From assembly GCA_964543815.1 (NCBI GenBank), contig CAZIZG010000001.1:116265-180264 (forward strand): a stretch of DNA of 64,000 bases, read 5' to 3'. Shown piece by piece: positions 2,022 to 52,664 of the stretch. A program made the translations under genes and the position numbers. Below the pieces are notes generated by a model. That model made no database searches. It had not been told where the DNA came from and saw only the letters and a list, made by a program, of their open reading frames with translations. The DNA comes from an uncultured Bdellovibrionales bacterium (GTDB lineage Bacteria > Patescibacteriota > Minisyncoccia > Moranbacterales > UBA1568). The stretch's first letter is position 1. Each line of letters opens with the position of its first letter.

Positions 2022-3446
2022 TTACTTCGTATTCTTTCGGCGTCTGAGTAGTGCTCCAGCTGTTTTGAAACAAATGATAATATCAAGCCACAATGACCAA
2101 TTCTCAATATAAAATACATCGAGAAGATACTCATCTTCAAAGGCCAAATCCGAACGACCTGATACCTGAGCCATACCCGTCACACCTGGCCGCATCGTAA
2201 GCAATCGGCGATGATATTCAGAATAACGCTCCACCTCACGTTCTTGATGTGGCCGTGGACCCACCAAACTCATCGTTCCTTCGAGAACATTGAAAAATTG
2301 TGGGAGCTCGTCGAGAGAAAAACGCTCGATAAAGGCCCCAACTTTCATTTTTCGAGGATCATCTTTGATTTTATAGAGGATACCCCCCTTGCGAACGTTC
2401 CGTTCGGCAATAAGCTCCTTCTCAAAGGCCATGGCTTCGGCCATGTGAGGGTTATCCTTGGTAACACAGTATTTCCAAAGCATGTAGCGAAATTTATACA
2501 CAAAGAACTTCGTTCCGTTCTCTCCGATACGTTCATTTTTATAAATAATCGGGCCATCCGGATCCTCAAGCTTGATCAGAATCGCCACAATGAGCATAAT
2601 GGGCGAAAAGAGCACCGTCAAAATGAAGCCGGCCACGATATCGTAAGCACGTTTGATAATACGGCCCCAGCCATCAAGCGGCGTATGCTGAAATTCGATA
2701 ATCGGCTCACCATTAAATATCTTCATCGAATAATTCTGGGTCTGAAAGGTGGTTGGAAAATATTTGTAAGTAATATTATTAATCTGGCAATAATCGAACA
2801 ATTTTTCCTGTTCATCATCCGTCAACGTTGAGTCACCAACGATAATTTCATCAACTCCTTTCGCTGCTCGGATTTCCTTGACCTGGACCACGCTCGCAGT
2901 ATCAATCTGATCAACAACGCGATAACCAAGCTCCCGATGTTTGGATAAATATTTAGCCAAGGCATACATTTTTTTATTGGTCCCAATAAGGAGGATGCGG
3001 TGAATACCAACACCGCGGTTAACCAGAAACCACTTCTGAACTCGTTGGATAATATAACGTGCAAGTACCACGTAAACGATGGCAATCGCCCACCCAACAA
3101 GAATAACAAACCGTGAGGAAAACCATTCTCGATTCAAAAAGACAGCAATAACCAATATAATCAATCCAAACGTAATAGCCTTAACCACACTGTACACTTC
3201 CTGAGAAAAGCGACGCGTCGCACGCATGGTATACAATCCCTCAAACGCAATAGTGAGCAGAAAAAATGGCGCCACTGTTGCCGCAAATATCAGATAGTCT
3301 TCAAAACTGAGATTAAAAACACGAGAAACATATCCCTCGAATATCGGGAGGCCGCGCAAAAAATACGCCGAAGCAGCCGCGAAGACAATCATGAGAAAGT
3401 CTACGGGCACTTGAACGGCACTAAAGTAGATTTCTGAACGTTTCAT
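2022..3446 (-). CDS. initiating polyprenyl-phosphate sugar phosphotransferase (WbaP-type bacterial sugar transferase)
   Basis: 474 aa; N-terminal TM block; catalytic-domain motifs [28 protein letters not shown] and [22 protein letters not shown]. Confidence 0.85.
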
Positions 3447-3483: not shown

Positions 3484-3856
3484 TTCCAAAACAGATCTAT
3501 AAGCCGGATTCTGTTCCGCCGAGGAGGCGGAGATTACCATTTATCTTGTCTATCCGTTACCGGATAACTCTTTGCAGTTCTCCACATCTTTCTTGAGCTC
3601 CAAGAAAAACTTGGCACGACCTTGCACCGAGGTAAGGATTTAGCCGTTTCACTCTCCGCATTACTGTGGAGACTCAACCCTTGCGGGTTGCCGAGCGTCT
3701 TTCGTACTCGGCGTCTCTGCTCGCACCTCGCGCCTCACGGCGTATGGGGGTTACCCATTACCCTTGCCACTCTTGCGAGTAGCTCGGTGTCCGGACTTTC
3801 CTCACTCCAGCCCTTTGCAGAGCCAGCCGCGCGATAATCCAATCTGTTCTGGAAAA
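3484..3856 (-). ncRNA. rnpB: RNase P RNA, bacterial type
   Basis: minus strand carries GAGGAAAGTCCGGAC (P4 5-prime half; plus-strand rc at 3789-3803) and ACAGAATCCGGCTTATAGATCTGTT (3-prime P4 half/P1, rc of about 3490-3515); P1 pairing CCAGAACAGAT/ATCTGTTTTGG; ends approximate (+/-5 nt). Confidence 0.85.
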
Positions 3857-3872
3857 GAACTTTTAACATTCT

Positions 3873-3901
3873 ATTTTAGCACAAAATTGACACTTTGTCA
3901 A
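3873..3901 (-). promoter_or_regulatory. sigma70-type promoter for rnpB (TTGACA-17-TAAAAT); the -35 lies inside the palindrome CATTGACActtTGTCAATG
   Basis: minus-strand TTGACA (plus 3896-3901), 17-nt spacer, TAAAAT (plus 3873-3878), about 20 nt upstream of P1. Confidence 0.5.
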
Positions 3902-4071
3902 TGACGCACTCTCAGCTCTCATCCTCCCTTATTCTACTCGAAAACCCCACTTTCTGACAGTCTCACTCTTTACAAAAACTACAATCTGTGGGAAGATATA
4001 TTGTCATCTCAGGAATTCATCCGAAATGTTTTCGATGAACACTCCTGTAGACGGCTAGAAGAAGGAGCGAA

Positions 4072-4377
4072 ATGACAGGAGTCATTGAAATGCTGCGTAT
4101 TCGCGTCGAAACCACACCAGAGTTCATCTGCCTTGCGCGGCATGAACATCACGCCGAATTCCTTGGAGCCTTTGTTGGGTTCGAACTCGACGCGGTTCCA
4201 GATCCCGAAAATGAGACGCTCTATCGCGTCTCGGTTGGAGAGGTAGAAAAAGCCCTCCGCCAAAAAACAGGCGGCACCATGGCTGTGGTCTACTGGACGG
4301 GCCACTGGCATCGTACCCAGCACCTGCTGGACGATCCCGTCTACTTCCCCAAGAGTTGCTGCGTCATCGTCACGTAG
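4072..4377 (+). CDS. hypothetical protein (101 aa) in a locally GC-rich islet
   Basis: AAGGAG 7 nt upstream of ATG; followed by terminator 4386-4418; overlapping minus ORF 4009..4323 rejected. Confidence 0.45.
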   Translation: MTGVIEMLRIRVETTPEFICLARHEHHAEFLGAFVGFELDAVPDPENETLYRVSVGEVEKALRQKTGGTMAVVYWTGHWHRTQHLLDDPVYFPKSCCVIVT

Positions 4378-4385
4378 CGCCTACA

Positions 4386-4418
4386 GGCGACCGGAACCCG
4401 GCCGCCTTCTTTTTTTTC
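4386..4418 (+). terminator. Rho-independent terminator
   Basis: GGCGaCCGG-aac-CCGGcCGCC stem followed by TTCTTTTTTTTC. Confidence 0.6.
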
Positions 4419-4421
4419 TAC

Positions 4422-5378
4422 CTACACTTTGAAGTAGTCTCGATACCAGTCAACAAAATTCTTAATACCTTTGTCGATACGTGTCGTCGGCTTCCAGCCC
4501 AGTTTACGCAGACGCTTGATATCAGCTACGGTTGACGGGACATCACCCGGCTGTATAGGAAGGAGTTCCTTCTTAGCCACTTTGCCAACATTCTTCTCAA
4601 TCACCTCAATAAAGCGGGTAAGCTTCTCCTCCCTGTCTCCGCCGATGTTCATCACCGCATACGAGAGGTCAGCATCGAGGCATGTCAGGATACCAGAAAC
4701 AATATCATCAATATACGTGAAATTTCGAGTCATATTGCCGTGATTGTAAACCTTGATGGTTTCATCTGCAAAAATAGCTCGAGTAAAATCAAACAAGGCC
4801 ATATCCGGCCGACCCCATGGACCATATACGGTAAAAAATCGTAGCCCCGTCGTCGGTAGACCATGAATATGACTGTAAACATGAGCGAGGAGCTCAGTGG
4901 CTTTTTTGGTAGCCGCATACGGCGAAATAGGGGTATCCACTGGGTCCGTCTCTGAGAAAGGTAGCTTTTTATTGTTGCCGTATACCGAGGAGGAAGACGC
5001 GTACAAAAAATTCTTCATCCCATACTTCACTGATAAATCAAGCAGATGGGTCGTTCCCATGATATTGACATCAGCATAAAGTGCTGGATTTTTGAGCGAG
5101 TTCCGAACTCCAGCCATAGCAGCAAGATGAATTACTTTTTCTGGCCGCTCTTTCTTAAATACTCGTTCTAAAAACTTCTCATCACGTATATCACCACGAT
5201 ACAGTTTAAATTTTCCTTTATAGGCCTTGAGAAATTTCTTGATACGATCTTCCTTGATTCGAGGATCGTAGTAGTCGTTAAAATTATCAATGAGCACTGG
5301 TGTGTCGCCCCGCTCCATCAGCGCCTTAGCCGTTGCCGACCCAATAAACCCCGCCCCGCCGGTAATCAATACTTTCAT
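4422..5378 (-). CDS. NAD-dependent epimerase/dehydratase (UDP-sugar 4-epimerase-like)
   Basis: N-terminal Rossmann VLITGGAGFIGS; short-chain dehydrogenase/reductase fold, about 320 aa. Confidence 0.8.
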   Translation of the reverse strand: MKVLITGGAGFIGSATAKALMERGDTPVLIDNFNDYYDPRIKEDRIKKFLKAYKGKFKLYRGDIRDEKFLERVFKKERPEKVIHLAAMAGVRNSLKNPALYADVNIMGTTHLLDLSVKYGMKNFLYASSSSVYGNNKKLPFSETDPVDTPISPYAATKKATELLAHVYSHIHGLPTTGLRFFTVYGPWGRPDMALFDFTRAIFADETIKVYNHGNMTRNFTYIDDIVSGILTCLDADLSYAVMNIGGDREEKLTRFIEVIEKNVGKVAKKELLPIQPGDVPSTVADIKRLRKLGWKPTTRIDKGIKNFVDWYRDYFKV

Positions 5379-6541
5379 ATACACTGCTTTAAGAAATTAT
5401 TATAGGCCTCATCGCAATACTTGGTAGTATAGCGCGCCAGAACCGTCTGTCGAGCCCGTTCCCCCATTCGCTGTCGATCCTCAGGAGAAACAATCAGGTG
5501 CTCCAATTTTTCCTGCCATTCCGAAGGCGTGGCTGCCACAAAGCCATCCACCCCATCGACGATCGCCTCACGAAAAGTCTGAGTCGCCGCAGCTACCGTC
5601 GGTACCGCTATCAATCCCGCTTCAAACCATTTGAGCTCTGATTTTGATTCACAAAAGGGATTTCCGATTTCAAGTGGCGCCAAATTAATATCCATCTGCC
5701 TGATATGTTCGAAAAGTTCCTCGCGGGTAAGAAATGGCACTCGTTCTATTTGTGATATATAAGGTGTCAGTAACTCATCGATGTCGAGCGGGCCAACTAA
5801 TACCAAGCGGAGATGAGAATACTTACCAAGAAGCGTTGCGAGTACCGGCGCAATGGTAGCAAAGTCTTTGTTGTGACTCGGGGTACCCGAAAGGTACGTC
5901 ATCCGAATCAATCCATCCGAATGAACTAGTTTGCCGATCACTCTCTCAGCAAGAGCGACATCCGCCTGAGACAGTTTGTTCCGTACCACAAAAACATGCT
6001 TTCCTCGTTCGCGGAGCTTGTCAGCTAAAAAAGTGGTGGTTGTGGTCGCCACCTTCACTGCCTCATCCGCAACAATCTCACCTCCCAGGCCATGCTCATA
6101 GAGCTTTTTTTCCCACGCATTCATCTTGGTATAGTAGTCCATGTGCTTAAGAAAGACTGGGTCGTATACGAGATCGTCCGTTTCAAAAATAATGGTCTTT
6201 CCCTGTGCTTTGAGGCCAGTAACAAACTGCGCAATCCGATCCGTATAGAGTACCCGATGAAAGACGAAAACGGAAAACTTTTCCGTATACGACAAGAGAA
6301 AAGGATTATCCTGAACCGTAATCGCTGTCCGGATATTTTGAAACCGCAACTCCTCGGCGACATTGGCGGTACGATACCGAGCACTGTCCCCTACGCCGTT
6401 TGAAATAAACAGTACGTCTCCTGGTTTCACCGAACGAAAAAGCCCCACGAAGGCCTTCGCGATACGCTCTCCGCCTCGCCAGAGACCATCCCGTTTGAGT
6501 ACCTGCCACGCCTTGCCAAATTTTATAAGGAGTAACTTCAT
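5375..6541 (-). CDS. glycosyltransferase family 4 (GT-B, GT1-type)
   Basis: 389-407 aa; C-terminal GT1 motifs; start trimmed to avoid overlap with upstream gene. Confidence 0.7.
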   Translation of the reverse strand: MKLLLIKFGKAWQVLKRDGLWRGGERIAKAFVGLFRSVKPGDVLFISNGVGDSARYRTANVAEELRFQNIRTAITVQDNPFLLSYTEKFSVFVFHRVLYTDRIAQFVTGLKAQGKTIIFETDDLVYDPVFLKHMDYYTKMNAWEKKLYEHGLGGEIVADEAVKVATTTTTFLADKLRERGKHVFVVRNKLSQADVALAERVIGKLVHSDGLIRMTYLSGTPSHNKDFATIAPVLATLLGKYSHLRLVLVGPLDIDELLTPYISQIERVPFLTREELFEHIRQMDINLAPLEIGNPFCESKSELKWFEAGLIAVPTVAAATQTFREAIVDGVDGFVAATPSEWQEKLEHLIVSPEDRQRMGERARQTVLARYTTKYCDEAYNNFLKQCI

Positions 6542-7728
6542 ACTGATTGAAGTAGTGTTCGATAAATACCCTCTACGTGTTCGGCGCTTTTTTCCCAACT
6601 AAACTCCCGTGCCCGTTCTCGATTTACCGCTCCTTTTCGCTTCCGCAGTGATTCATCGGCTATGAGGAGAGCGATGGCTTGGGCCAAAGCGTCACTCGTA
6701 CAGGCAGTAGCATACGTTCCGCCCTCACCGAGATACTCACGATTATTACCCGTATCAAAACATGCTACTGGCAATCCCGCTCCCATATACTGAAGCGTCT
6801 TGCCACTTGCCTCACGTGTTGCCTCATCCTTGGGGTCAACACCAATATCGCTCATCCAGAGAATACCCGGCAAATCAAAGTACGGGGACGGACTAATAAG
6901 AGTCACTTTTTCAGCCAAAGCACTCGGGATATCTGAAGCAATCAGATCCAGCGGGAAACCAGCCAAAACAAAGTGAACGGATGGAAACTGATTTGCTAAA
7001 ATAGGCATGGCTTCCAGGAAAAAATGGATTCCCTTATTGCGAATAAACGCTCCAGTGTAAGTCACCACGACGGCACTTTCCGATATGCCATACTTTGTTC
7101 GAATATCCCGCTTTTGAGGTAAGCTATCAAACATAGAAAGGCGCGTCCCATCAAGGAGTACCGGTACCGTTTCTTTGCGATAGAGCGCAATTTCCTTGGC
7201 GTTATTCCAAGAACTTGTTACGGCTGTATCACCCATTTGATCAATCACTTGCTCAATAAAACGAAAGAGTCGTTTGAGACCCGAGGCCCGCAGATAACTG
7301 TGCGAAACCATCTCTTTGGTCAGGCTGCCATGAAAGTCCGCTACCACTTTGATCCCTCGCCAAAAAAGCAACTTCTGAACAATCCACGCAATAAGAACGC
7401 CCTCGTGCAGGTGAGCATGAATGATATCGGGTCGTTTCGTCCGGGCCAGGAAAAAAACTTTTTTAATCAATAAGAGATCAAGAATAATCTTCTGCCAATC
7501 TGGTCCCGCTTCCAATTTGTGATACCAAAAAAGCAGTCGTCTGATACGTCTCACATCGATATGACTCCCCAGCATCACGGGAAGATCCTGCCCGATATGA
7601 TACGTGGCAATCGTAACCTGATGTCCACGCTGCTCAAGCGCCAAGGCCTCTTCCAAAATACGAATATGCGTTCCCCGATCTGAGAAAAATGGTGTTGGCG
7701 CGACCACAAGAATATTGAGAGGAGACAT
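6538..7728 (-). CDS. glycosyltransferase family 4 (GT-B)
   Basis: N-terminus NILVVAPTPFFSDRGTHIRILEEALALEQRGHQV; start moved to internal MSPLNIL so it abuts the stop of the upstream ATPase gene. Confidence 0.7.
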   Translation of the reverse strand: MSPLNILVVAPTPFFSDRGTHIRILEEALALEQRGHQVTIATYHIGQDLPVMLGSHIDVRRIRRLLFWYHKLEAGPDWQKIILDLLLIKKVFFLARTKRPDIIHAHLHEGVLIAWIVQKLLFWRGIKVVADFHGSLTKEMVSHSYLRASGLKRLFRFIEQVIDQMGDTAVTSSWNNAKEIALYRKETVPVLLDGTRLSMFDSLPQKRDIRTKYGISESAVVVTYTGAFIRNKGIHFFLEAMPILANQFPSVHFVLAGFPLDLIASDIPSALAEKVTLISPSPYFDLPGILWMSDIGVDPKDEATREASGKTLQYMGAGLPVACFDTGNNREYLGEGGTYATACTSDALAQAIALLIADESLRKRKGAVNRERAREFSWEKSAEHVEGIYRTLLQSV

Positions 7729-13663: not shown

Positions 13664-13680
13664 TCCGCAGAAAAAAAAGA

Positions 13681-13705
13681 GGAAGCCGAATTTCGACTTC
13701 CTTTT
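13681..13705. terminator. bidirectional Rho-independent terminator
   Basis: AAAAAAAAGA-GGAAGCCGaatttCGACTTCC-TTTTG; A-run upstream and T-run downstream serve the convergent genes on both strands. Confidence 0.6.
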
Positions 13706-13723
13706 GTGCGTGCCGCGCTCTGT

Positions 13724-14212
13724 TCAGTGCGGCTGACTGCGGCGATCGCGCGAGGCGAACAGATTCATCAGGTCGGACAGACTGCCCAGGCCGAGCTCCT
13801 GCTGCTCGATCTGCTTGAGTTGATCGAGGTCGAGCACCGACCAATGCGGACCGATGCCGAAGCCCAGCTTGCCACTGAGGCCGGGGAACTCCTGGAGCAC
13901 CGCCTCGTGAAACGTGGCTTCGAGCCACTTGGACCGGCGCGCCAGCGAAAGCGCCTTGGTCTTCGCGTCATCCTTGACACGAACCGGCGCGAGCGCGATG
14001 TCGAGCACGGCCACCTGGGCGTCGCGCGCTGCCTTCTGCTTGAGGTAGAACAGCGCACGGAGCGGATGTGACAGGGTGCCGAGCACGAAACGCCGGAGCT
14101 CCGAAGGCACGCCACCTGCCGGAACGACGGCCTCCATCTGCAACGCAGTGACCACCTCCAACTGACCCGTCAGGTCAGCGAAGAAAGGGATCTTGCCGAT
14201 TCTCTCGTCCAT
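13724..14212 (-). CDS. hypothetical protein (163 aa) in high-GC islet
   Basis: GGAG 8 nt upstream of the MDERIGKIP start; visibly GC-rich with several overlapping stop-free frames; no motif recognized. Confidence 0.45.
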   Translation of the reverse strand: MDERIGKIPFFADLTGQLEVVTALQMEAVVPAGGVPSELRRFVLGTLSHPLRALFYLKQKAARDAQVAVLDIALAPVRVKDDAKTKALSLARRSKWLEATFHEAVLQEFPGLSGKLGFGIGPHWSVLDLDQLKQIEQQELGLGSLSDLMNLFASRDRRSQPH

Positions 14213-14313
14213 GAATTCTCCATCTGTCAAACTTCGCCTACAGAAACAAGCCCTTGGCCTATTCCCAGGCGAAAGAATACTGTACCTCTTTTTGAGAATT
14301 TCGTCAAGTATTA

Positions 14314-15771: not shown

Positions 15772-15894
15772 AAATACTTTTCAGTAAAGGAGATTCTTGA
15801 AAAACACACCCTCGCTCTTGGATTACGCAGGGTAAATAAAAACGCCGTTTTCGGCAAAAGCATTCTGACACAGAATTTTGAAATACGCAAGGCA

Positions 15895-15927
15895 TGAAAA
15901 AAGCGACGAGACATTCCCTCGTCGCTT
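15895..15927 (-). terminator. Rho-independent terminator for gene 15942..16268
   Basis: perfect 10-bp stem AAGCGACGAG/CTCGTCGCTT with 7-nt loop; U-tract on the minus strand. Confidence 0.7.
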
Positions 15928-15941
15928 ATCTGGTATTGGCC

Positions 15942-16268
15942 TCAGGCGATGGCGGCGGCACCGTTGCGCGGCAAGGTCGTCGCCAGGTAGATGCCCGCCA
16001 GTACCCCGAGCGACTGCCTGCCGCGTCCAATCATGCACTCGTCCATGACGGTGTGGAGTTCCTCGACAAACCGCCCGAGGACGATGAGGGCCACGTTTCC
16101 GCGCTTCGCATCGGCCCGATGGAGACGATAGCGTCCTTTGAGGAGGTCCACCGTGGCCAGGAGATCCTGCGGCACGATGAGTGCGAGCAAATGCTTGGCC
16201 TCACTCACACCACGAAGCGCGACGGCACATTCTTGGGCCTCTTGAAAAAGACTGGTCACATCATTCAT
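15942..16268 (-). CDS. hypothetical protein (108 aa) in high-GC islet; possibly a distant paralog of 13724..14212
   Basis: GGAGAGAG upstream of start; terminator downstream; weak by-eye similarity to 13724..14212 (LLKGRYRLHRADAKRGNVALIVLGRFV vs YLKQKAARDAQVAVLDIALAPV). Confidence 0.45.
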   Translation of the reverse strand: MNDVTSLFQEAQECAVALRGVSEAKHLLALIVPQDLLATVDLLKGRYRLHRADAKRGNVALIVLGRFVEELHTVMDECMIGRGRQSLGVLAGIYLATTLPRNGAAAIA

Positions 16269-16398
16269 GTCTTACTCTCTCCGGTGAAATTGCCGCTAAA
16301 CGGCGAAAAAAGAACCAAATCTGTCATAACATTTTAGTACAGATTTGTATTTTTGTCAACCCCCATTATTTTGCCTTCTCACCTCTACTCTGAGACAG

Positions 16399-16438
16399 AA
16401 TTCCTCACTTTCTCACGACCGTGAGAAAGTGAGGAATT
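16399..16438. repeat. perfect 18-bp inverted repeat with 4-nt loop
   Basis: AATTCCTCACTTTCTCAC-gacc-GTGAGAAAGTGAGGAATT, 6 nt beyond the GT4 stop codon; no U-tract. Confidence 0.8.
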
Positions 16439-16443
16439 GAAAT

Positions 16444-20607: not shown

Positions 20608-20636
20608 TTGACAAAAATCTATTTTAGGTGTATAAT
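20608..20636 (+). promoter_or_regulatory. consensus sigma70 promoter TTGACA-17-TATAAT
   Basis: exact consensus hexamers with 17-nt spacer, about 85 nt upstream of ATG 20722. Confidence 0.6.
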
Positions 20637-20721: not shown

Positions 20722-21423
20722 ATGAACCTTAACATCAGCGTCACGTCAGCAAGAACCCAAAAAGAAGCTTCAGTCAAGTGGATTCAGCCCACAGGGCCGG
20801 AGCTCAAGCAGGGTTCAAAGCAACGTCATCGCGCCACCTGGTCAGTCACGCTCGACAAACTCGAGAGTGAGATCATACGTATTTGGGGCGCCCCCCTGTT
20901 CCATGGCGAAATCGAAAATCCCCACGCCGAGGAAATAGGCGTAGAGTTCAACGACGTTCTCTGCAAGAGTGTCTGCGGTATCGGTATGGGAGCCGCCTAT
21001 AGGGTCATAATGACTCAGCCAGACAATCCCATCCACAGCGACCTCTTTCAGTTCCGTCTCAATGCCAATCTGATGAACGGTCGCCGTTCAATCATGGTGA
21101 GCATCGACAAGCCCCACATCAATGAGCAGAACCTGGAATTCTTCCTGCGACTCCTCAAGATCTGCATGAAGGAATTCTATCGAAAGGGCAATAAACAACA
21201 CGTCGGGGCATATTTCAACAGTCGTAAGGGTATCGGACACGCAAAGCGCCGCTACCTGCTCTGGCTGGGAGCTCAGGGACAACTCGATGCCGGCACCAGG
21301 GCGCTCTGGAGCAATTACCACGCTTTAGAGATCAAATACAACCTGACGGCTGGGACGTACAAGGGAGCTAATAGCGCCTGGCAACGTCTAATCGCAGTCG
21401 AACAAGCTTTGCAGAAGATCTGA
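20722..21423 (+). CDS. hypothetical protein (233 aa), moderately GC-rich
   Basis: GGAG 7 nt upstream; own promoter and terminator; no recognized motif. Confidence 0.5.
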   Translation: MNLNISVTSARTQKEASVKWIQPTGPELKQGSKQRHRATWSVTLDKLESEIIRIWGAPLFHGEIENPHAEEIGVEFNDVLCKSVCGIGMGAAYRVIMTQPDNPIHSDLFQFRLNANLMNGRRSIMVSIDKPHINEQNLEFFLRLLKICMKEFYRKGNKQHVGAYFNSRKGIGHAKRRYLLWLGAQGQLDAGTRALWSNYHALEIKYNLTAGTYKGANSAWQRLIAVEQALQKI

Positions 21424-21446
21424 CCCTGGGCGCTTAGCCGCTCATC

Positions 21447-21506
21447 ACCCGCCGCACGGCTTTAGGGAACCCCCTACTTGTTGTACAGGCGGGTTTTCTA
21501 TTTTTC
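21447..21506 (+). terminator. Rho-independent terminator (long-loop hairpin ACCCGCC...GGCGGGT + TTTCTATTTTTC)
   Basis: 7-bp GC stem closing a structured loop, then U-tract. Confidence 0.45.
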
Positions 21507-21548
21507 AAAAACTTTATTTGGAGGTATTATTCGAAATAGCTAATTCTT

Positions 21549-21887
21549 ATGATAATAGTTATGGTCTTTGAACAAGGGGGTTTCGGGAATCAAAAAGAAG
21601 TAGTCGGGGACGAAAAGAACGTTTCTGCTTTTGTTGAAAGAAATGCAGTAGCGATAAAAGAAAGATTATCTGCCATGACCCCCACAGAGCTCACAGCCTT
21701 TTTTGAAGCTATAATGCTCTGTGGATGGGATGCCTCTGGCGAGGGAGGTAATGGCGAAACAAGTGATGAAAAAAGATTTCCTCAAGACGAAAGGAGCGAC
21801 GGCAGTTATGGGGCAACTGGTTTGAAATTTGGCGAAAATCCCCTAGTAGTAGAAAGAATGAAAAAATTACTTGGTCTAGAAAAATAA
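21549..21887 (+). CDS. hypothetical small protein (112 aa)
   Basis: ORF only; acidic, Gly-rich; no support beyond frame. Confidence 0.25.
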   Translation: MIIVMVFEQGGFGNQKEVVGDEKNVSAFVERNAVAIKERLSAMTPTELTAFFEAIMLCGWDASGEGGNGETSDEKRFPQDERSDGSYGATGLKFGENPLVVERMKKLLGLEK

Positions 21888-21905: not shown

Positions 21906-23351
21906 ATGCCCGAATCAGACAGGCAAACAAACAAAAACCAAGAACACGAGATACTGGCCCGCGAGGCACTCGCACATCCTGAACTCTTTGAGCGTCGGAC
22001 GTATCTCGAAGATGCTTCGCTTCTTCATGAATTCGGCATCAGCATTCCTGGTAAGGAGTCCTTCGCTTCGGGCTATCTCAAACTCTGGCCTGGGGATTTT
22101 ATCGTGGAGGAAGTCAGTCCCGAAGGTGAAATAGCGACGGTCACAAGAGAAAATATCCTCACTCCCGAGACAGAACTCTCCTACGCTCCGACTATCTACG
22201 CCACCCTCGTCAAATGCGGCATCTCTACGATTGAGGCCATCGATGACATGGTGGCACAACTAGGCTGTGAAAGAACCGCTATCGGCTATGCTGGCATCAA
22301 AGATCGTGACGCTCTCACTGCCCAACGCATTTCTTTTCGAAAAGTTACTCCACAAAAGCTTAAGGCTCTTACCTCGCCCTATTTTTTCCTCAAAGATGTC
22401 ACCGAAGGCAAGGGAGCGGTAGCAACTGGCGGACTCAGGGGGAATCGTTTCACGCTTCTCATTCGGACCAATCAACAATTTTTTCAGAAACACACCCTCG
22501 ATGCCTTCGCCCACAATCTCACAACTCTGCGTGATTCTGGATTCACCAATTTCTTTTATCTGCAACGCTTCGGTACTCCCCGTCTCCGAAATTATGTCTG
22601 GGGACTCTCTCTTCTGCGAGGTGCCTATGAAGAAGCCGTGTATGATGTCTTGACGTACCAAGCCCCCCGCGAACTCACCTACTTCAAACAGCTTCGTGAA
22701 AAATGCGGCACCCTCTGGGGTCGCTGGAATGAAATTGAGACACTCATCAGTCCGTTTCCGATTATCTTTCGTCATGAGTTGCGTCTCGTTCGTTACCTCC
22801 AAGTTCATCCCAATGATTACAGCGGGGCACTGGCGGAACTCTCAGACCAAATAGTGCTGTGGGTCTATGCCCTGGCTTCACGCTACTATAACGAAACTCT
22901 CTCCGGATATCTCAAAAGAGGTGAGACGCCTCCAAAAAACCTCCCGCTCTTTCTTGGTTTCAACAAAAAAAGCTGGGGGCCCTATGAGGAGGTACTGCGC
23001 CGCGACGGTATCTTCCCGCCACCCTTTGATAATCTAAAACCTTTCCCCTTTCTCCAAATTCGTGAACGTACCCTTCCCTGTACTGACCGTCCAAATCTCT
23101 CTGGTATACAGGTATGTGACCAGGGCGTCATCCTGTCGTTTGAACTCGGCAAAGGTCAGTACGCCACCACTTTCCTCTCGCATCTCATCAATCTCCTCAC
23201 TGGCAAACCACCGGAAACCCTTCGAACGGAACAAGTTGATACCCGCGCTCTCCTCGGTGAACCCGGCAATGCCGAAACCATCGCCTATTTCGCCCCCATC
23301 ATTCGTTCCAAACTGGAAACCGAACAAGAATTCGGGGAAATCAAGGAATAG
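21906..23351 (+). CDS. truD: tRNA pseudouridine(13) synthase TruD-like
   Basis: LKLWPGDFIVEEVSPEG, GYAGIKDRDALTAQRISF, NFFYLQRFG match TruD signature blocks (PEDFVVVE, FAGQKDKHAVT, NYFGAQRFG). Confidence 0.65.
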   Translation: MPESDRQTNKNQEHEILAREALAHPELFERRTYLEDASLLHEFGISIPGKESFASGYLKLWPGDFIVEEVSPEGEIATVTRENILTPETELSYAPTIYATLVKCGISTIEAIDDMVAQLGCERTAIGYAGIKDRDALTAQRISFRKVTPQKLKALTSPYFFLKDVTEGKGAVATGGLRGNRFTLLIRTNQQFFQKHTLDAFAHNLTTLRDSGFTNFFYLQRFGTPRLRNYVWGLSLLRGAYEEAVYDVLTYQAPRELTYFKQLREKCGTLWGRWNEIETLISPFPIIFRHELRLVRYLQVHPNDYSGALAELSDQIVLWVYALASRYYNETLSGYLKRGETPPKNLPLFLGFNKKSWGPYEEVLRRDGIFPPPFDNLKPFPFLQIRERTLPCTDRPNLSGIQVCDQGVILSFELGKGQYATTFLSHLINLLTGKPPETLRTEQVDTRALLGEPGNAETIAYFAPIIRSKLETEQEFGEIKE

Positions 23352-23369
23352 TATCTTCAGACAAATTTA

Positions 23370-23402
23370 AACGGGTACCACTCTATTGGAGTGATACCCG
23401 TT
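23370..23402. terminator. 14-bp hairpin (one mismatch), probable bidirectional terminator
   Basis: AACGGGTAcCACTC-tattg-GAGTGaTACCCGTT between the convergent truD and 23435..24004. Confidence 0.5.
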
Positions 23403-23434
23403 CGTTTGGCCCCGCACTGCGGGACGTTCGTTCC

Positions 23435-24004
23435 TCAGGCCGCCTTGGGTTCAGCCTCGATGAGGACGAAAGTGCCTTCACGTACCACGGCCAGATACTT
23501 CGGCGGGTCTTCACTCGGCGAAGTAAAGTTGACTGTGATGGGACCATCCTGGTTCCACCACGTGCTGTCGTTCCAGCTGAAGCGGTTCGACAGAACAACG
23601 ATGGCGTCCCGCACTGGCCGCGAAAGCTCCAAGATTTCCTCCGGGTTGGGAGCGGCCTTGTAGACGAGTTGGACCACGTTTTGCGTGTCCCTTCCGATGA
23701 GCTTGGCCATGTGCTTGTCCGTGATTTCCTGTTCCCACTGGCCGATGTCCACCAGTTTCCACTGGTGGCCTTCGGCATTGGCGATGCCGAGACGGAGCAG
23801 CTTGGGGCTGACACCGCTCTGCCTGATGAGGCATTCTCCGGTGTCCTGTCTCTTCCCACGGACAGTCTTGAATTTGCCGCGGTAACCGAGGTCAGGGATA
23901 CCGCTAGGCACCGAATTACCCTGAAAGAAGAACTTGACGATCACGATACCGTTTGACTCATCGAGCCCCAGCGGAGACTTATCGTTCGCGTAGCTTGTTG
24001 CCAT
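23435..24004 (-). CDS. hypothetical protein (189 aa) in high-GC islet
   Basis: AAGGAGG upstream of the MATSYAND start; region has at least 5 overlapping stop-free frames (GC-rich); no motif. Confidence 0.45.
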   Translation of the reverse strand: MATSYANDKSPLGLDESNGIVIVKFFFQGNSVPSGIPDLGYRGKFKTVRGKRQDTGECLIRQSGVSPKLLRLGIANAEGHQWKLVDIGQWEQEITDKHMAKLIGRDTQNVVQLVYKAAPNPEEILELSRPVRDAIVVLSNRFSWNDSTWWNQDGPITVNFTSPSEDPPKYLAVVREGTFVLIEAEPKAA

Positions 24005-24155
24005 GATGCCTCCTTGGCGTTAGGCGTTGTGGATTGTGAAGGAAAGCTGTGACACTATCCCTCGTGGATGATGCCGTCGGAATTTCATTCCAACGTATCA
24101 GTATAGCACCTTTTGACATAAAAGTCAAGGTAAAGTGCTTAATAATGACTATTTT

Positions 24156-24182
24156 AAAGCAAAAAAGACTCTCTTGAGTCTT
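24156..24182 (-). terminator. Rho-independent terminator after the HtrA-like gene
   Basis: AAGACTC-tctt-GAGTCTT with U-tract on the minus strand. Confidence 0.5.
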
Positions 24183-24219
24183 TACTTTGATAGTATTTTC
24201 AAGAATCGAAAACCCCGAA

Positions 24220-25449
24220 TTACAATTTTACTTCTACAGTACGCTCCTCTCCTCCACGCAAGATGCGGAGATTGAGAGTGTCGCCTTGATTGAAACGACT
24301 GATGAGTTCGGAGAGTGGATTGTCGAGGTTCACCTCACTATCATTGACGGCTGTGATGATATCCCCGGCCAAAATCCCCGCCTTCATGGCTGGAGAATCA
24401 GCGATGAGCGCCAGTCCGGTACTGCCAGAACGAGAGTACACGAGCGCCCCGCGATCACGTGACAGTCCCCGGCCAAGTGCCAGAGCTTTGGTGATAGAGA
24501 GGTAGTAAACTCCAAGCGTTGGACGCTTCTCGAGAGTACCACTCGTCACATGATTAAACGCATCCCGAACGACATTTGAAGGAATGAGGAACGACTGAAG
24601 CGTATTGTTGATAGTGAGGGTACCCACGAGTCCTACCATTTCCCCATTCCATCCTACAACTGGCCCACCTACAAAAGCTTCTGGTTCAGCCAATCCCATT
24701 TCAAAAACACCTTCCCATTTTTCTGAAGAGGCCACCGTCTTACCAGAAAGGTTGAAAATACGGTTAACGTTGGTGAGGATATCGACAGAAAGGCGATTCT
24801 GGTATTCAGCAAAGGTATTACCAATAGCAATGAGCTTCTTTCCCACACGGGCATCATCGGAATTGGCCAGCGCAATAGCTGGAGTATTAGTAGCGTCACT
24901 CACTCGGAAAAAAGACAGATTGGTCAGTACGTCCCGGCCGACAAAGGCAGCCTCATGTATCGATCCATCAAAGAGTAAAATTGAATACCGGGTCTTTTGC
25001 GTATCAAACGGTAACTCACTATAAGTCACGACTAATCCATCATTGGTCATGAGCACTCCCGTAGTAGTTACCACCGTCTCTGCAGCCGCCCCCAGAGTGG
25101 CCGTATTCCCCTTTACATCCTTTGATTCTGATGGCAGGGCTACGATATTGACCACAGCGGTCGCTGGCTGTGAAACAATTTTTTCTACCGTATCGTCTTC
25201 GCGCACCACCACCTGTTCGGTCTTGTTGATAACCGTCACGTGCTCAGCTGCTTGTTTAAAAAAGTCCCACTGCGATAGATGCTTATTGGCTGCCAGGCGA
25301 GGCACAACAGAGCGCTCAAAAAACACTCCGCCCACACCTCCTAAAATGAGGATAATGGCAGCTAAAAAGGTAAAGAGGATGGCCTTTTTGATGAGAAATG
25401 ATGTCATAGAGAGCGCTCTCTTTGTATCACATTTTTCCATTTCTGGCAA
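24220..25449 (-). CDS. HtrA/DegP-like trypsin-fold + PDZ protein, predicted catalytically inactive
   Basis: 409 aa; N-terminal TM; PDZ GILAGDIITAVNDSEV; expected TNxHV His region reads MTNDGLVV and the GNSGGP Ser region reads AFVGGPVVG (catalytic His and Ser absent). Confidence 0.6.
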   Translation of the reverse strand: MPEMEKCDTKRALSMTSFLIKKAILFTFLAAIILILGGVGGVFFERSVVPRLAANKHLSQWDFFKQAAEHVTVINKTEQVVVREDDTVEKIVSQPATAVVNIVALPSESKDVKGNTATLGAAAETVVTTTGVLMTNDGLVVTYSELPFDTQKTRYSILLFDGSIHEAAFVGRDVLTNLSFFRVSDATNTPAIALANSDDARVGKKLIAIGNTFAEYQNRLSVDILTNVNRIFNLSGKTVASSEKWEGVFEMGLAEPEAFVGGPVVGWNGEMVGLVGTLTINNTLQSFLIPSNVVRDAFNHVTSGTLEKRPTLGVYYLSITKALALGRGLSRDRGALVYSRSGSTGLALIADSPAMKAGILAGDIITAVNDSEVNLDNPLSELISRFNQGDTLNLRILRGGEERTVEVKL

Positions 25450-29228: not shown

Positions 29229-31484
29229 TCACTCTGGCGACAACCGAACTCCCGTCTCATTTGGAGCTGTTTCGGAAGATTTGGCTGTATCAATAAGCGC
29301 CCGGATACCGTTTGTATCCACCACCGGACGACGGCGTAATGCTTTAAATTTTTTTGGTTCTATATGTTTGGCCTGAGCCAAAGAAAGTGGGGCGTCTGTC
29401 GAGGCATATGCTTGATGGCGAACATCTCTTCGTTCGGATACACGAGACGGTCGGGCCGTCCTGCTTTGTTCATCTGGACGAGCCACTGGGGAAACTGTTT
29501 GCTTTCGCTCTATTTCATTGCGAGCCTTAGCAGTCGCCCGTTGATAATCCCGCAGACAGTCTTTACAGAAAGTTGGTCGACTTCCATCAGGTTTGAACGG
29601 CACTTCAATTTCCAGTCCACAGGTAGCACATACGGCCTGATAGAGTATTTTCTCTGGTACTAATGCTTCAGCATGGACCGCCTCCGTCTGCGCCTCCGCG
29701 TCAGACAAAACGGGTTCATGCTGTGATACTTCAAGAGCTTGATTCTTTTTTTCACCCTGCTCAAAGGCATCCAAATCTACCAACGACGCCTTCTTTGGTG
29801 CCAGCGGTGGTTCAAAAGCCGGCTTGGCAGCTGATGACACCACGCCTTTAAGCAAAATAGCCGCCTCATCCGCTGTGTAGATCTCAGGATTGGAGCCAGA
29901 GGGATCGGGGGTTACCGTATCTTTTGGTGCGGGAGTTGGTAAAGTGATTTTCGGAATCGCCGCATACTTCTGGGCCGAGGGCATCATTTTCTTTGGTGGC
30001 TGTGATGGTTGTGCTGAAACAACTGGAGCCGAGAGTGGCTTCTGAGCTGCTCTCCCCTCGCCAAACTGAGCGGTTGGTTGCGGCATCTTCGGTCGGGGTT
30101 GAGACTGGGATGGCACCCCCAAAGGACGCGACGTTTCTTTGGGTCGCACGGAGGCAACTGGTGGTGCGACTGTTTTCACCAAAGCTTGGCGCTCTTCGGC
30201 TGAGAGCATACCACTCCATCGCATAATTTTTTCTTCCACTTCTTCTTTTTTCGATGTATAGCGCTCCCGGGAAGAATTGATAATTTTTTCTTCATTTCCA
30301 GCATCTTCCAACTTGATAGGTGGCAAAGTTGTAGCTGAAAAGGCATCACCAGCAATACCATCAATCATGAGCTTGAGATAAATCTGGTACTTCGGCAAAT
30401 TGACGATATCATTCATCATGAATACCGGCTCAAACTCCTTTTCCAAAAACTCGGCGTCCATAGCCCCTACCCGGAACGAAACGATGCTACCAGCGTTTCC
30501 AAAAATAGCGTCACGCACCTTTTCATCAATCTGGGTCACGTACTGATTGGCCAGGATGAGGTTCAGGTGGTACTTACGCGCCTCAGAAAGAATATTAGCA
30601 AACGACTCCGTAGCAAAATTCTGAAACTCATCAACGTAAAGATAAAAATCCGCTCGAGTATCTTCTGGAATGTCTACTCGACCCATGGCAGCAAGTTGGA
30701 TTTTGGTAATCATCATAGCCCCAAGGAGAGCGCTATTGTCCTCACCGAGACGACCCTTGGAAAGGTTCATGATGAGGATCTTACGCTCATCCATAATCTT
30801 GCGCACATCAAAGGACGAGACGGTCTGACCCACAATATTTCTGATGAGAGCACTCGAAAGGAACTGCCCTACCTTGTTCTGAATCGGAGAAATAACCTCT
30901 TGAAGCACCCGAGGATCCCACTTGGAAAATTCGTCCACCCAAAAGGAACGAACCACTGGATCAGTGATTTTTTCTACTACCCGCTCCCGATAAGATTTAT
31001 CAACCAGGATACGAGTGACACCGAGAAGTGTGCTTCCCGGATATTCAAGCAGACCCAAAATAGCATTACGCAAAATATACTCCAGTCGCGGTCCCCAGGA
31101 ATCAGCCCAGATTTTTTTGAACACTCCCACCAAACCAGAGGCCACCAAGTGACGGTACTCCGGACTGACTTTTTCCATCACATTGAAAGCAATCGGGAAG
31201 TCTTGGTCAGCCGGATTAAAATAGATAACGTCATTAATACGATTTGACGGGATGGCCTTGATGAGTTTTTCAGCCGTATCACCGTGCGGATCAATAAAGG
31301 CGATACCATGACCCTTTTGGATATCCTGAATAGCCAGGTTTTCCAAAAGATTGGTCTTACCCATACCGGTTTTTCCAATCACATACATGTGTCGGCGACG
31401 ATCATCTTGCTTGATACCAAACACACGTTCCTGATTACGGAAGTTCGTCTTGGCAAAAAATGTGACGTCATTCTGTAAAGCCAT
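29229..31484 (-). CDS. TraG/TraD/VirD4-family (type IV coupling-protein-like) ATPase lacking TM anchor, with C-terminal CxxC...CxxC zinc ribbon
   Basis: Walker A VIGKTGMGKT at residues 34-43, Walker B FYLYVDEFQNF, then ARKYHLNLILANQYVTQI (VirD4/TrwB-like); Pro/Ala/Ser-rich linker; CATCGLEIEVPFKPDGSRPTFCKDC. Confidence 0.7.
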   Translation of the reverse strand: MALQNDVTFFAKTNFRNQERVFGIKQDDRRRHMYVIGKTGMGKTNLLENLAIQDIQKGHGIAFIDPHGDTAEKLIKAIPSNRINDVIYFNPADQDFPIAFNVMEKVSPEYRHLVASGLVGVFKKIWADSWGPRLEYILRNAILGLLEYPGSTLLGVTRILVDKSYRERVVEKITDPVVRSFWVDEFSKWDPRVLQEVISPIQNKVGQFLSSALIRNIVGQTVSSFDVRKIMDERKILIMNLSKGRLGEDNSALLGAMMITKIQLAAMGRVDIPEDTRADFYLYVDEFQNFATESFANILSEARKYHLNLILANQYVTQIDEKVRDAIFGNAGSIVSFRVGAMDAEFLEKEFEPVFMMNDIVNLPKYQIYLKLMIDGIAGDAFSATTLPPIKLEDAGNEEKIINSSRERYTSKKEEVEEKIMRWSGMLSAEERQALVKTVAPPVASVRPKETSRPLGVPSQSQPRPKMPQPTAQFGEGRAAQKPLSAPVVSAQPSQPPKKMMPSAQKYAAIPKITLPTPAPKDTVTPDPSGSNPEIYTADEAAILLKGVVSSAAKPAFEPPLAPKKASLVDLDAFEQGEKKNQALEVSQHEPVLSDAEAQTEAVHAEALVPEKILYQAVCATCGLEIEVPFKPDGSRPTFCKDCLRDYQRATAKARNEIERKQTVSPVARPDEQSRTARPSRVSERRDVRHQAYASTDAPLSLAQAKHIEPKKFKALRRRPVVDTNGIRALIDTAKSSETAPNETGVRLSPE

Positions 31485-37481: not shown

Positions 37482-37553
37482 TGGGGAGTAGCCAAGCGGT
37501 AAGGCAGGGGCCTTTGAAGCCTCCATGCGATGGTTCGATCCCATCCTCCCCAG
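37482..37553 (+). tRNA. tRNA-Gln (anticodon TTG); CCA not encoded
   Basis: TGGGGAG-TA-GCC-AAGCGGTAA-GGC-A-GGGGC-CTTTGAA-GCCTC-CATGC-GATGG-TTCGATC-CCATC-CTCCCCA-G; cloverleaf near-identical in plan to E. coli tRNA-Gln. Confidence 0.85.
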
Positions 37554-37559
37554 CAAATT

Positions 37560-40227: not shown

Positions 40228-40596
40228 CTAGAGGTCATCGGGTGAGATGACCTGCGTGTGATTCAAGCAGGATCGCAAAAAGACCGTGGCGGCATCCTTT
40301 GGTTTCCTCGGGATATCAAAGACCCGTAACAGTGCTTCCCGGAGGAAGCGCGTCGCTCCTGGACTTCGTACGAACCAACGCTTCTCTGGATCCATTCCAG
40401 ACAGGACAGTGACGTTGTCATCGAACAGGCCAACGATTTTTTTCTTCGAATAGCCATTGTCCCGTGACATGGCGGCATGCTCGATGAAATCACTTCCCTC
40501 GTGACACTCCCGCACCGTTGGCAGGAAGTCTTGAGCAAAGGAACTGGTTGAAATACCAATCCACAGTATCAGTATACAGATACTCCAAACGCGCAT
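40228..40596 (-). CDS. secreted hypothetical protein (122 aa, signal peptide) in high-GC islet
   Basis: AAGGAGA upstream; N-terminus MRVWSICILILWIGISTSSFA-QD; GC-rich. Confidence 0.5.
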   Translation of the reverse strand: MRVWSICILILWIGISTSSFAQDFLPTVRECHEGSDFIEHAAMSRDNGYSKKKIVGLFDDNVTVLSGMDPEKRWFVRSPGATRFLREALLRVFDIPRKPKDAATVFLRSCLNHTQVISPDDL

Positions 40597-52124: not shown

Positions 52125-52664
52125 TTAGGAATTAACGGAAGTATTTTCAACTTCAATATCCTCAAAAATTTGAAGCAGTGCCGCTAATACGGCTTTGGGT
52201 GATGGTGGATCACCAGGAATTTTGAAGTCTACAGGAATAACGTCTTCGACACTATTGTGAATACCATACGAATCACGATAAATCCCTCCATCGATAGCCC
52301 CATCCCCAACCGCCACTACAAAACGCGGGGTTGGCATCGCTTCATACGTGTGACGAAGTCCCTGTGCCATATTCCGAGAAACAGGACCCGTGACAAAGAG
52401 CATATCCGCATGACGTGGCGAGGCAACAAAGTGGATACCAAAGCGTTCTACATCATAATAAACATTCCCAAGAGCAGTTAACTCTTGTTCTTCGGCATTG
52501 CTTGATCCGGCCGCTACCTCACGAATAGCCAGTGATCCCTTAAAAAGCTTTTTGACCGATGCTTCAATTTTTTCTCCCAAAACCTCAGCGCTAAGATTCA
52601 GTAGCTCTGAGTGTGGCACCACTAATTTTGGCGTGGCGGCAATTTTACGTAACAGTCGGTACAT
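52125..52664 (-). CDS. NuoB/HycG-like small subunit with all four Fe-S (N2-type) cysteine ligands replaced
   Basis: ASPRHADMLFVTGP (NuoB SPRQADxMxVAG block); expected CC, C in GSCAxxGG and C in PGCPP read SS, GDGAIDGG and PGDPP. Confidence 0.7.
   Translation of the reverse strand: MYRLLRKIAATPKLVVPHSELLNLSAEVLGEKIEASVKKLFKGSLAIREVAAGSSNAEEQELTALGNVYYDVERFGIHFVASPRHADMLFVTGPVSRNMAQGLRHTYEAMPTPRFVVAVGDGAIDGGIYRDSYGIHNSVEDVIPVDFKIPGDPPSPKAVLAALLQIFEDIEVENTSVNS

Follow-up and report, generated by a model that had tools for sequence, protein, structure and literature searches.

Among described genetic systems, the one nearest in kind to the locus analysed here is the minimal mobile element of Neisseria (Saunders & Snyder 2002; Snyder 2007), which, as described in PMC3787668, comprises variable genes lying between conserved flanks and exchanged by homologous recombination. 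Islets acquired by horizontal transfer and phage morons, as well as integron cassettes, offer further points of comparison. A further parallel is selection acting on the secondary structure of mRNA within coding sequences, which has reportedly been described (Katz & Burge 2003; Mauger et al. 2019).

The gene under study, here called X, lies in a stretch of DNA of 64,000 nucleotides which was analysed as a whole (the window). As in minimal mobile elements, whole-gene content at this site varies between specific conserved flanks (promoter/leader, 3' hairpins, truD and htrA), and the closest relatives differ in it while agreeing with more distant ones (as judged from one contig pair and small trees). 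A scan of part of the window genes found no mobility genes belonging to X. The locus differs from that concept in that its arms are its own promoter/leader and 3' hairpins, with only the segment from SD to stop codon replaced, in that the alternatives at the site are deeply diverged homologues (a dimorphism), in that the cassettes share a maintained excess of GC at third codon positions (GC3) instead of being compositionally arbitrary, and in that the host is a CPR bacterium. X resembles transfer islets and morons as a one-gene promoter-terminator unit with deviant GC and an ORFan product, but it has neither a prophage or mobile context nor a donor, its position is conserved over deep divergence and its composition is stationary without amelioration. 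Unlike integron cassettes, the islets of the window bring their own promoters, no attC-like motif common to them was found, and the 3' hairpins of X do not recur at any of the others. The reading we prefer, to which we assign a probability of roughly 0.65, is that X has long been resident in a Moraniibacteriota-like CPR bacterium as a native, monocistronic gene, with a swappable CDS in a conserved socket at the side of truD and a GC3 that is held gene-specifically.

A GC-rich single-gene unit beside truD

X has a GC content of 0.574 and a GC3 of 0.732, compared with a GC of 0.466 for the window and a GC3 of 0.465 ± 0.050 (maximum 0.574) for 50 core genes, which places it at z = 5.3; its GC1 and GC2 are near normal. 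The neighbouring genes encode TruD (PF01142) and two HtrA-like Trypsin_2/PDZ proteins, and these values and Pfam matches bear out the GC-rich islet between truD and HtrA-like genes that a preliminary description had recognized. Its other observations on the gene were likewise recovered, namely a strong AAGGAGG SD, terminators on either side, at least five spurious frames overlapping the gene (a count of ORFs of 50 aa or more gave five besides X, on both strands) and the lack of a recognizable motif, as X gave no significant match in Pfam, NCBIfam, PHROG or PADLOC. The further islets named there are also deviant, with GC3 z values of 7.0 (islet 13724), 5.2 (15942), 3.6 (20722), 3.2 (4072) and 2.5 (40228). 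X and the other islets are real single-gene, self-contained transcription units of deviant composition; their features are collected in Table 1.

Table 1. Coordinates of X, its neighbours, its predicted regulatory elements and selected other islets, as positions in the window.
Feature	Position	Strand	Details
X CDS, allele class A	23435-24004	-	189 aa, ATG start, GC3 0.73
truD (PF01142)	21906-23351	+	481 aa; always convergent with X-family genes
htrA-like gene upstream of X	24220-25449		terminator 24164-24183 (-)
Predicted X promoter	24100-24128	-	TTGACT-17-TGcTATACT, 10/12 matches, extended -10
X -35 box	24123-24128	-	TTGACT
X extended -10	24100-24108	-	TGcTATACT, 17-nt spacer from -35
X 5' leader	24005-24094	-	~90 nt, structured and conserved, from folding and leader identities
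Leader hairpin P1	24076-24094	-	at predicted transcript 5' end, GUUGG..CCGAC
Leader hairpin P2	24038-24063	-	SD-like GAGGGA paired with anti-SD-like UUCCUUC
Leader hairpin P3	24025 to 24000	-	extends just beyond ATG, SD displayed in loop
SD	24009-24015	-	AAGGAGG, 4 nt ahead of ATG
First 3'-UTR hairpin	23411-23423	-	CCCGC-AGU-GCGGG; compensatory changes, class A and B loci
Second 3' hairpin, intrinsic terminator of X	23369-23403	-	15-bp stem, compensatory stem changes
Terminator of htrA-like gene	24164-24183	-	upstream edge of X socket
Islet 13724	13724-14212	-	162-aa ORFan, GC3 0.82, own conserved promoter/leader/terminator socket
Islet 15942	15942-16268	-	108 aa, GC3 0.73
Islet 15942 promoter	16359..16331	-	TTGACA-17-TAAAAT
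Islet 15942 terminator	15927..15901	-	
Islet 20722	20722-21423	+	233 aa, GC3 0.65, perfect 12/12 promoter at 20608-20636

An artefact, in the form of a mis-binned or chimeric contig or of a spurious ORF within GC-rich non-coding DNA, might be suspected from the five alternative ORFs over X and from the metagenomic source. However, the window is 99.92-100% identical over X and both flanks to ten independent assemblies from different samples, the matching contigs reach 276 kb and duplicate contigs of the region differ by at most 16 nt per pair. The islet is therefore neither a chimera nor the binning error that had been named beforehand as an alternative. In addition, the protein is kept in more than 50 sequences and has a confident predicted fold, and the antisense ORFs are the expected by-product of an avoidance of TTA, CTA and TCA and are not conserved in the window. 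The assemblies, together with the AlphaFold model, have already refuted this explanation. The idea that an overlapping or antisense gene accounts for the high GC was rejected too: the long antisense ORFs at three related loci (L015, L016 and L018) sit in the codon-complement frame, follow from the same avoidance and are broken in the window, and the two allele classes described below, A and B, are without any nucleotide similarity.

An X-family gene lies tail-to-tail with truD in all 14 loci recovered (the window, L011, L012, L014, L015, L016, L018, L019, L021, L023, L025, L028, L029 and L032). It is placed between htrA and truD in every Moraniibacteriota-type locus among them (12 of the 14) and adjoins truD in the more distant lineages, the contexts on the opposite side being of five kinds: htrA, a DUF4012 gene, the rpsN/rpsH operon, a gene for a 421-aa hypothetical protein and a partial 48-aa ORF (L023). 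The TruD of the window shares 70-78% identity with its counterparts in Moraniibacteriota MAGs, and between X-bearing lineages TruD identity drops to 33-35%. Since the two genes are convergent in every locus over this range, the X-truD pair is ancient and maintained.

Probable exchange of coding segments within a conserved socket

The predicted promoter of X is kept in both class A and class B loci, and the leader hairpins P1 to P3 form in all four lineages that were folded (z -2.7 to -4.4). Between lineages, leader identity is mostly 0.69-0.88, as against 0.31-0.46 at four-fold sites, and the 3'-UTR is 0.54-0.81 identical, with compensatory changes in its stems; conservation of the untranslated regions is equal across the two allele classes. 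The terminator hairpin lies 18 nt past the stop codon of truD, and the two tail-to-tail genes have it in common. A search of Rfam gave no match to the leader, either at the gathering threshold or at E values up to 1, and the UTR motifs of X are unique within the window, its neighbours being housekeeping genes.

At four loci (L015, L016, L018 and L019) a gene encoding some 196-218 aa, here class B, occupies the same place and strand as X. While tblastn found no link between the two, a profile-profile comparison (hhalign, E = 1e-5 over 173 columns) identifies classes A and B as remote homologues, with 21-32% (about 25%) identity. Two loci of opposite class, L032 (A) and L019 (B), have a 100% identical promoter and leader to within a few bases of the SD and show 97% identity over the stretch that begins at the stop codon and takes in truD; between SD and stop codon they are near-random, at 0.30-0.50 per 60 nt. 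This swap is seen in a single pair of short metagenomic contigs, and conserved UTRs could seed a template switch by an assembler. In neighbour-joining trees of seven taxa, the flanking genes (two genes, TruD and HtrA) place the window beside L015 (88-96% bootstrap) and L011 beside L016 (94%), whereas the X tree separates the window, L011 and L025 from L015, L016, L018 and L019 at 100%.

From these comparisons, the class distribution of X appears not to follow the flanking genes, and the only part that seems to vary within the conserved socket is the stretch from SD to stop codon, in the form of deeply diverged allele classes. We infer that this segment has been replaced by homologous recombination, or that it represents a long-lived dimorphism with exchange. 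In the mechanism proposed, the conserved untranslated flanks would serve as arms for a homologous recombination that exchanges the coding cassette, in the manner of the Neisseria minimal mobile elements.

Sockets of similar design occur at islets 13724 and 15942. Islet 13724 behaves like X in having same-site homologues and a persistent GC3 excess. Its only two homologues (62-71% identity) hold the same position beside an ABC-F gene, the GC3 of the islet and its homologues is 0.78-0.83 versus 0.48-0.62 in the flanks, and promoter, leader and terminator are conserved in three lineages, the islet being missing in two others. Homology between X and islet 13724 was considered and none was found, the proteins being unrelated. 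At islet 15942, the window and L031 have a common promoter, leader start and terminator region, with 72-90% identity upstream of the CDS and about 50-90% downstream, and this socket holds a CDS of 108 aa in the former and a non-homologous one of 98 aa in the latter. L011, L015, L016 and L018 lack islet 20722 at the corresponding site. Between positions 3400 and 22000, the best promoter matches precede islets 20722 (12/12) and 15942 (11/12) and the RNase P RNA.

Origin and maintenance of the GC3 excess

In 11 lineages with a genome GC of 0.43-0.52, the GC3 of X is 0.64-0.80 versus 0.44-0.60 in its neighbours, and the difference from the flanks (+0.226 ± 0.068) is positive in all 11. In two genomes of 65% GC, X is close to the genomic GC3 (+0.08 and -0.05 relative to neighbours). 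At the four-fold sites of conserved residues, class A sequences are 0.31-0.46 identical (saturation expectation 0.30-0.35) and class B sequences 0.29-0.54 (0.29-0.35), comparable with the 0.36-0.45 of truD, htrA and the ABC-F gene (expected 0.25-0.36); despite these near-saturated sites, the GC4 of X stays at 0.63-0.83 in each lineage. The GC3 excess of X is stationary, persisting through a large or complete turnover of synonymous sites, and because it is kept although four-fold sites are near saturation, the high GC3 is an equilibrium property and not a foreign relic. Adjacent genes thus differ in equilibrium GC3, which un-ameliorated foreign DNA cannot explain.

The preliminary description had proposed the capture of such islets from a high-GC source, for instance the host of an episymbiont. 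In the case of X this would be a recent acquisition from a high-GC, perhaps actinobacterial, donor whose composition has yet to ameliorate, as its strong compositional deviation (GC3 z = 5.3), its ORFan product with its own promoter and terminators, and the lack of islets 13724 and 20722 at the same site in some relatives might suggest. However, no labelled or context-resolved homologue was found outside Parcubacteria in collections of 5.8 billion and 1.84 billion proteins or among phages, plasmids and IMG/VR, every relative examined has an orthologue at this site, GC4 is unchanged in each lineage although four-fold sites have reached or nearly reached saturation, the truD linkage spans lineages at only 33% TruD identity, and a scan covering part of the window genes found neither mobility genes nor repeats around X. 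A phage, plasmid or defence origin was rejected, as there was no match in PHROG, PADLOC, INPHARED, PLSDB or IMG/VR.

Best-hit taxonomy and synteny had been put forward as checks on capture. The former gave X no match in any labelled source other than Parcubacteria, and the latter places its orthologues at the same site in relatives, with the same GC3 excess, so that the outcome named in advance as speaking against capture is the one observed: homologues, where labelled or resolved by context, occur only in CPR relatives of similar composition. The donor reading is close to refuted, and we consider it very unlikely. What stands of the earlier view of the islets is that they are single-gene, self-contained and deviant units, with coding parts that are replaced between lineages; a high-GC donor or host as their source does not. 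Taken as a whole, the comparisons support cassette replacement and do not support the donor hypothesis.

The GC excess is confined to the X CDS, the adjacent ends of truD and htrA being without a GC3 gradient, and the codon shift affects both C- and G-ending codons in nearly all amino acids. Third-position GC would accordingly have to be seen in terms of a force specific to the gene, and the most likely candidate, which we hold only tentatively, is selection on the transcript, keeping third positions GC-rich in favour of a densely base-paired, nuclease-resistant, high-output mRNA. The CDSs of X fold below their synonymous-codon shuffles in all ten lineages, which include three allele classes (z -1.5 to -6.7, mean -3.51), compared with z = -0.06 ± 1.13 in 28 control segments of equal length from truD and htrA (Mann-Whitney p = 3.5e-6). 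The MFE density is -0.41 for X versus -0.28 kcal/mol/nt, and a dinucleotide shuffle of the window X gives z = -1.96. The shuffle test is not GC-biased, since the GC-rich islets 13724 and 15942 give a folding z near 0. A conserved specific RNA structure in the class A CDS was rejected (RNAalifold covariation term +5.08, with many broken pairs), and only a global foldedness of the X mRNA is therefore supported. The predicted transcript combines a near-consensus extended -10 promoter, a 5' hairpin, an SD in a hairpin loop and a double 3' hairpin, and would have the hallmarks of a stable, high-output mRNA.

The likeness to the selection on coding mRNA structure mentioned at the outset is that the native CDS is predicted to fold more stably than its synonymous shuffles, with GC-rich third positions supplying the pairing. 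It differs in that the effect falls mostly on a few small cassette genes and is not genome-wide, and in that X adds a GC3 shift of about 0.25 and cassette exchange. Islets 13724 and 15942, which have the highest GC3, show no excess folding, and selection on mRNA structure cannot be the whole story behind the islet pattern.

GC-biased gene conversion (gBGC) is the second candidate after transcript selection and, in our estimate, somewhat unlikely. The sockets would then be recombination hot spots, at which the repair of heteroduplexes drives third, and partly first, positions to G or C without any benefit. This agrees with the recombination or replacement documented at these very loci, with a shift to G- as well as C-ending codons where ribosomal-protein genes favour T-ending ones, with a raised GC1 in islets 13724 and 15942 (z = 3.2) and with the same trait in unrelated cassettes; such conversion has been proposed in Lassalle et al. 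2015 (PMC4450053) to be able to interfere with selection for AU-ending optimal codons. It does not predict the excess folding of the X mRNA over synonymous shuffles, and exchange between allele classes would leave no heteroduplex inside the CDS. Broad conversion tracts were rejected, as the expected GC3 gradient into the truD and htrA flanks is absent. Furthermore, the effects of gBGC within bacterial genomes are modest, against which an excess of 0.23 is large.

Less probable still is ordinary translational selection, in which X would be very highly expressed and use optimal C-ending codons. The strong promoter, the canonical SD in a hairpin loop and the strong terminators would fit such a gene, as would the preference for NNC over NNT codons (ATC in 12 of 12 Ile codons, AAC in 8 of 10 Asn and GAC in 8 of 11 Asp). 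However, the genes for L7/L12 and L10 in the same window prefer T-ending codons (TTT, GAT, ATT, GCT, GGT and GTT), so that strong expression is in itself no predictor of GC3 in this genome, and a codon bias of the ribosomal-protein kind is contradicted as the cause. G-ending codons (CTG, CCG, AAG and GAG) are raised in X too, which marks a compositional and not a tRNA-matched shift. Transcript selection is hence retained as the leading, though tentative, candidate for what maintains the composition of X.

Protein family, possible function and significance

Three orthologues of X share 49-54% identity with it and are alignable over their full length. Searches of 5.8 billion proteins yielded 4 + 24 matches, of which the 24 came from a word-indexed search and include two labelled Moraniibacteriota/Moranbacteria, and a profile search of 1.84 billion representatives returned 34 proteins only, several of them short fragments; one of 3051 aa (P0014) is a cadherin/RTX adhesin whose match is probably spurious. 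Within the broad subfamily, one protein carries the label "Parcubacteria group bacterium", and each homologue that has a source label or whose genomic context was recovered belongs to Parcubacteria/Moraniibacteriota, none being found in the phage, plasmid and viral collections INPHARED, PLSDB and IMG/VR. Full-length members of the family, which totals more than 50 sequences, are mostly about 175-240 aa long and share the blocks VKFxF..P.GIP, (R)xDTG, VW.N and TINF. The protein is small and without an obvious signal peptide or membrane segment, and no RNA-binding or enzyme domain was detectable. Its AlphaFold2 model (pLDDT 90.8, pTM 0.86) matched nothing in the PDB or in a viral structure library. 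By these searches, X appears to be a member of a previously undescribed Parcubacteria protein family for which no match in sequence or structure was found.

The linkage to truD, a single zinc-ribbon fusion (in L025, where the first of two tandem X paralogues is fused to a zf_Tbcl_2 domain), fast evolution (about 50% identity where the flanks are at 70-80%) and the dimorphism point weakly to a function linked to RNA or tRNA and under diversifying selection, which we consider quite unlikely on present indications. X would resemble an accessory factor of TruD/Pus7 in being invariably adjacent to truD (14/14 loci), but the convergent orientation means that the two genes are not co-transcribed, and X is without a detectable domain of the kinds named above. 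To our knowledge no accessory protein of TruD has been described, and such a role is a lead only.

A wider scenario, speculative and in our view unlikely, is that Parcubacteria possess a set of 'expression sockets' at fixed sites between housekeeping genes, in which a strong promoter is combined with a structured leader and terminator hairpins, and into which small, GC-rich and over-folded cassettes are exchanged with CDS-precise boundaries. The truD-linked X family would in that case be a dimorphic, conflict-driven module whose action is on tRNA/RNA modification or in concert with it, and its GC-rich coding would be required for function, for instance as resistance to AU-directed RNases.

Genes of outlying composition are routinely taken for recent horizontal acquisitions, and at X that inference fails. 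Different equilibrium GC3 in adjacent genes instead calls for a gene-specific force, be it RNA-level selection or gBGC. Little is known about the population genetics and gene exchange of CPR bacteria, for which the locus would provide a case of CDS-precise allele replacement inside a conserved transcription unit, and it reveals a previously unannotated conserved leader RNA. A new family with a confident, unmatched predicted fold and an invariant link to truD also gives experiments a concrete handle. If the wider scenario is true, sockets and cassettes would constitute a previously undescribed gene-exchange and expression system of ultra-small bacteria.

Gene X and its leader in near and distant relatives

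The GC3-rich 189-aa gene X is preceded by a structured, conserved 5' leader (see the table), which had no match in Rfam and in which an SD-like GAGGGA pairs with an anti-SD-like UUCCUUC. UUCCUUC could instead pair with the real SD, and the leader may act as a translational switch or thermometer.

Two of the relatives compared, L015 (CAZCNN010000001.1) and L018 (CAZATJ010000011.1), are MAG records titled 'uncultured Bdellovibrionales bacterium'. Both are collinear with the Moraniibacteriota-like window, with protein identities of 70-95%, and judged by these sequences the Bdellovibrionales label is probably wrong. The more distant locus L021 carries an X of class B (6001-6579), one of the two deeply diverged allele classes, which is 45-48% identical to the class B proteins of Moraniibacteriota (L015, L016, L018 and L019), whereas its TruD is only 33-35% identical to that of the same loci. 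Between the X genes of L015 and L021, identity at four-fold sites is 0.54, against an expected 0.35 (n=39). One possible cause of the mismatch between X and TruD is that the CDS was laterally transferred; another is that the truD is not orthologous. In another relative, L025, a tandem pair of X paralogues is found (6001-7425), the first of which has a zf_Tbcl_2 zinc ribbon at its N-terminus; the same domain forms the C-terminus of a TrwB-like ATPase in the window (29229-31484).

Folding and neighbourhood of the islets

Compared with synonymous shuffles, the native CDSs of three of the single-gene GC3-outlier islets form more stable folds (z of -3.3 for 4072-4377, -2.8 for 20722-21423 and -4.0 for 40228-40596), the native value being reached by none of 30 shuffles in each case. 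The comparison genes fall short of this level (L7/L12, z +0.5; L10, -1.4; the DUF5656 gene, +1.3; the 112-aa ORF, -0.4). Islet 4072 comprises two competing, overlapping ORFs, 4072-4377 (+) and 4009-4323 (-). It adjoins the RNase P RNA gene, and the rise in GC at 3500-4500 is partly due to the latter. The Oxidored_q6 protein is unusual for a CPR genome; such genomes are generally regarded as encoding no respiratory chain.

Features located in the window
Feature	Position	Strand	Remarks
Structured 5' leader of X	24005-24094	-	conserved
RNase P RNA class A gene (bacterial)	3484-3850	-	108.5 bits
Promoter-like site for RNase P RNA gene	3901..3873	-	
tRNA-Gln (UUG)	37482-37554	+	sole tRNA gene in the 64-kb window
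Oxidored_q6 protein	52125-52664	-	resembles NADH-quinone oxidoreductase 20-kDa subunit or hydrogenase small subunit

Other sockets and variable sites

At islet 15942 (window 15772-16443), the promoter, the start of the leader and the terminator of the socket are retained in L031 (1035-1729), where the enclosed CDS is unrelated (98 aa, GC3 0.64). The leader and terminator of islet 13724 (window 13664-14313) are likewise conserved, in three lineages (the window, L030 and L031), the leader containing a long-range stem (UUUCGyCUGGGAAUAGGCC...AGGCGAA); in L015 and L018 the entire unit is missing from the corresponding site. Between hisS and truD, the window carries islet 20722 (233 aa) and a low-GC3 112-aa ORF (21549-21887), both of which are absent from that interval in L011, L015, L016 and L018, and L019 and L025 have a different gene of 157-162 aa in it. 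By this comparison of loci, the hisS-truD interval (20722-21887) looks like another variable site.
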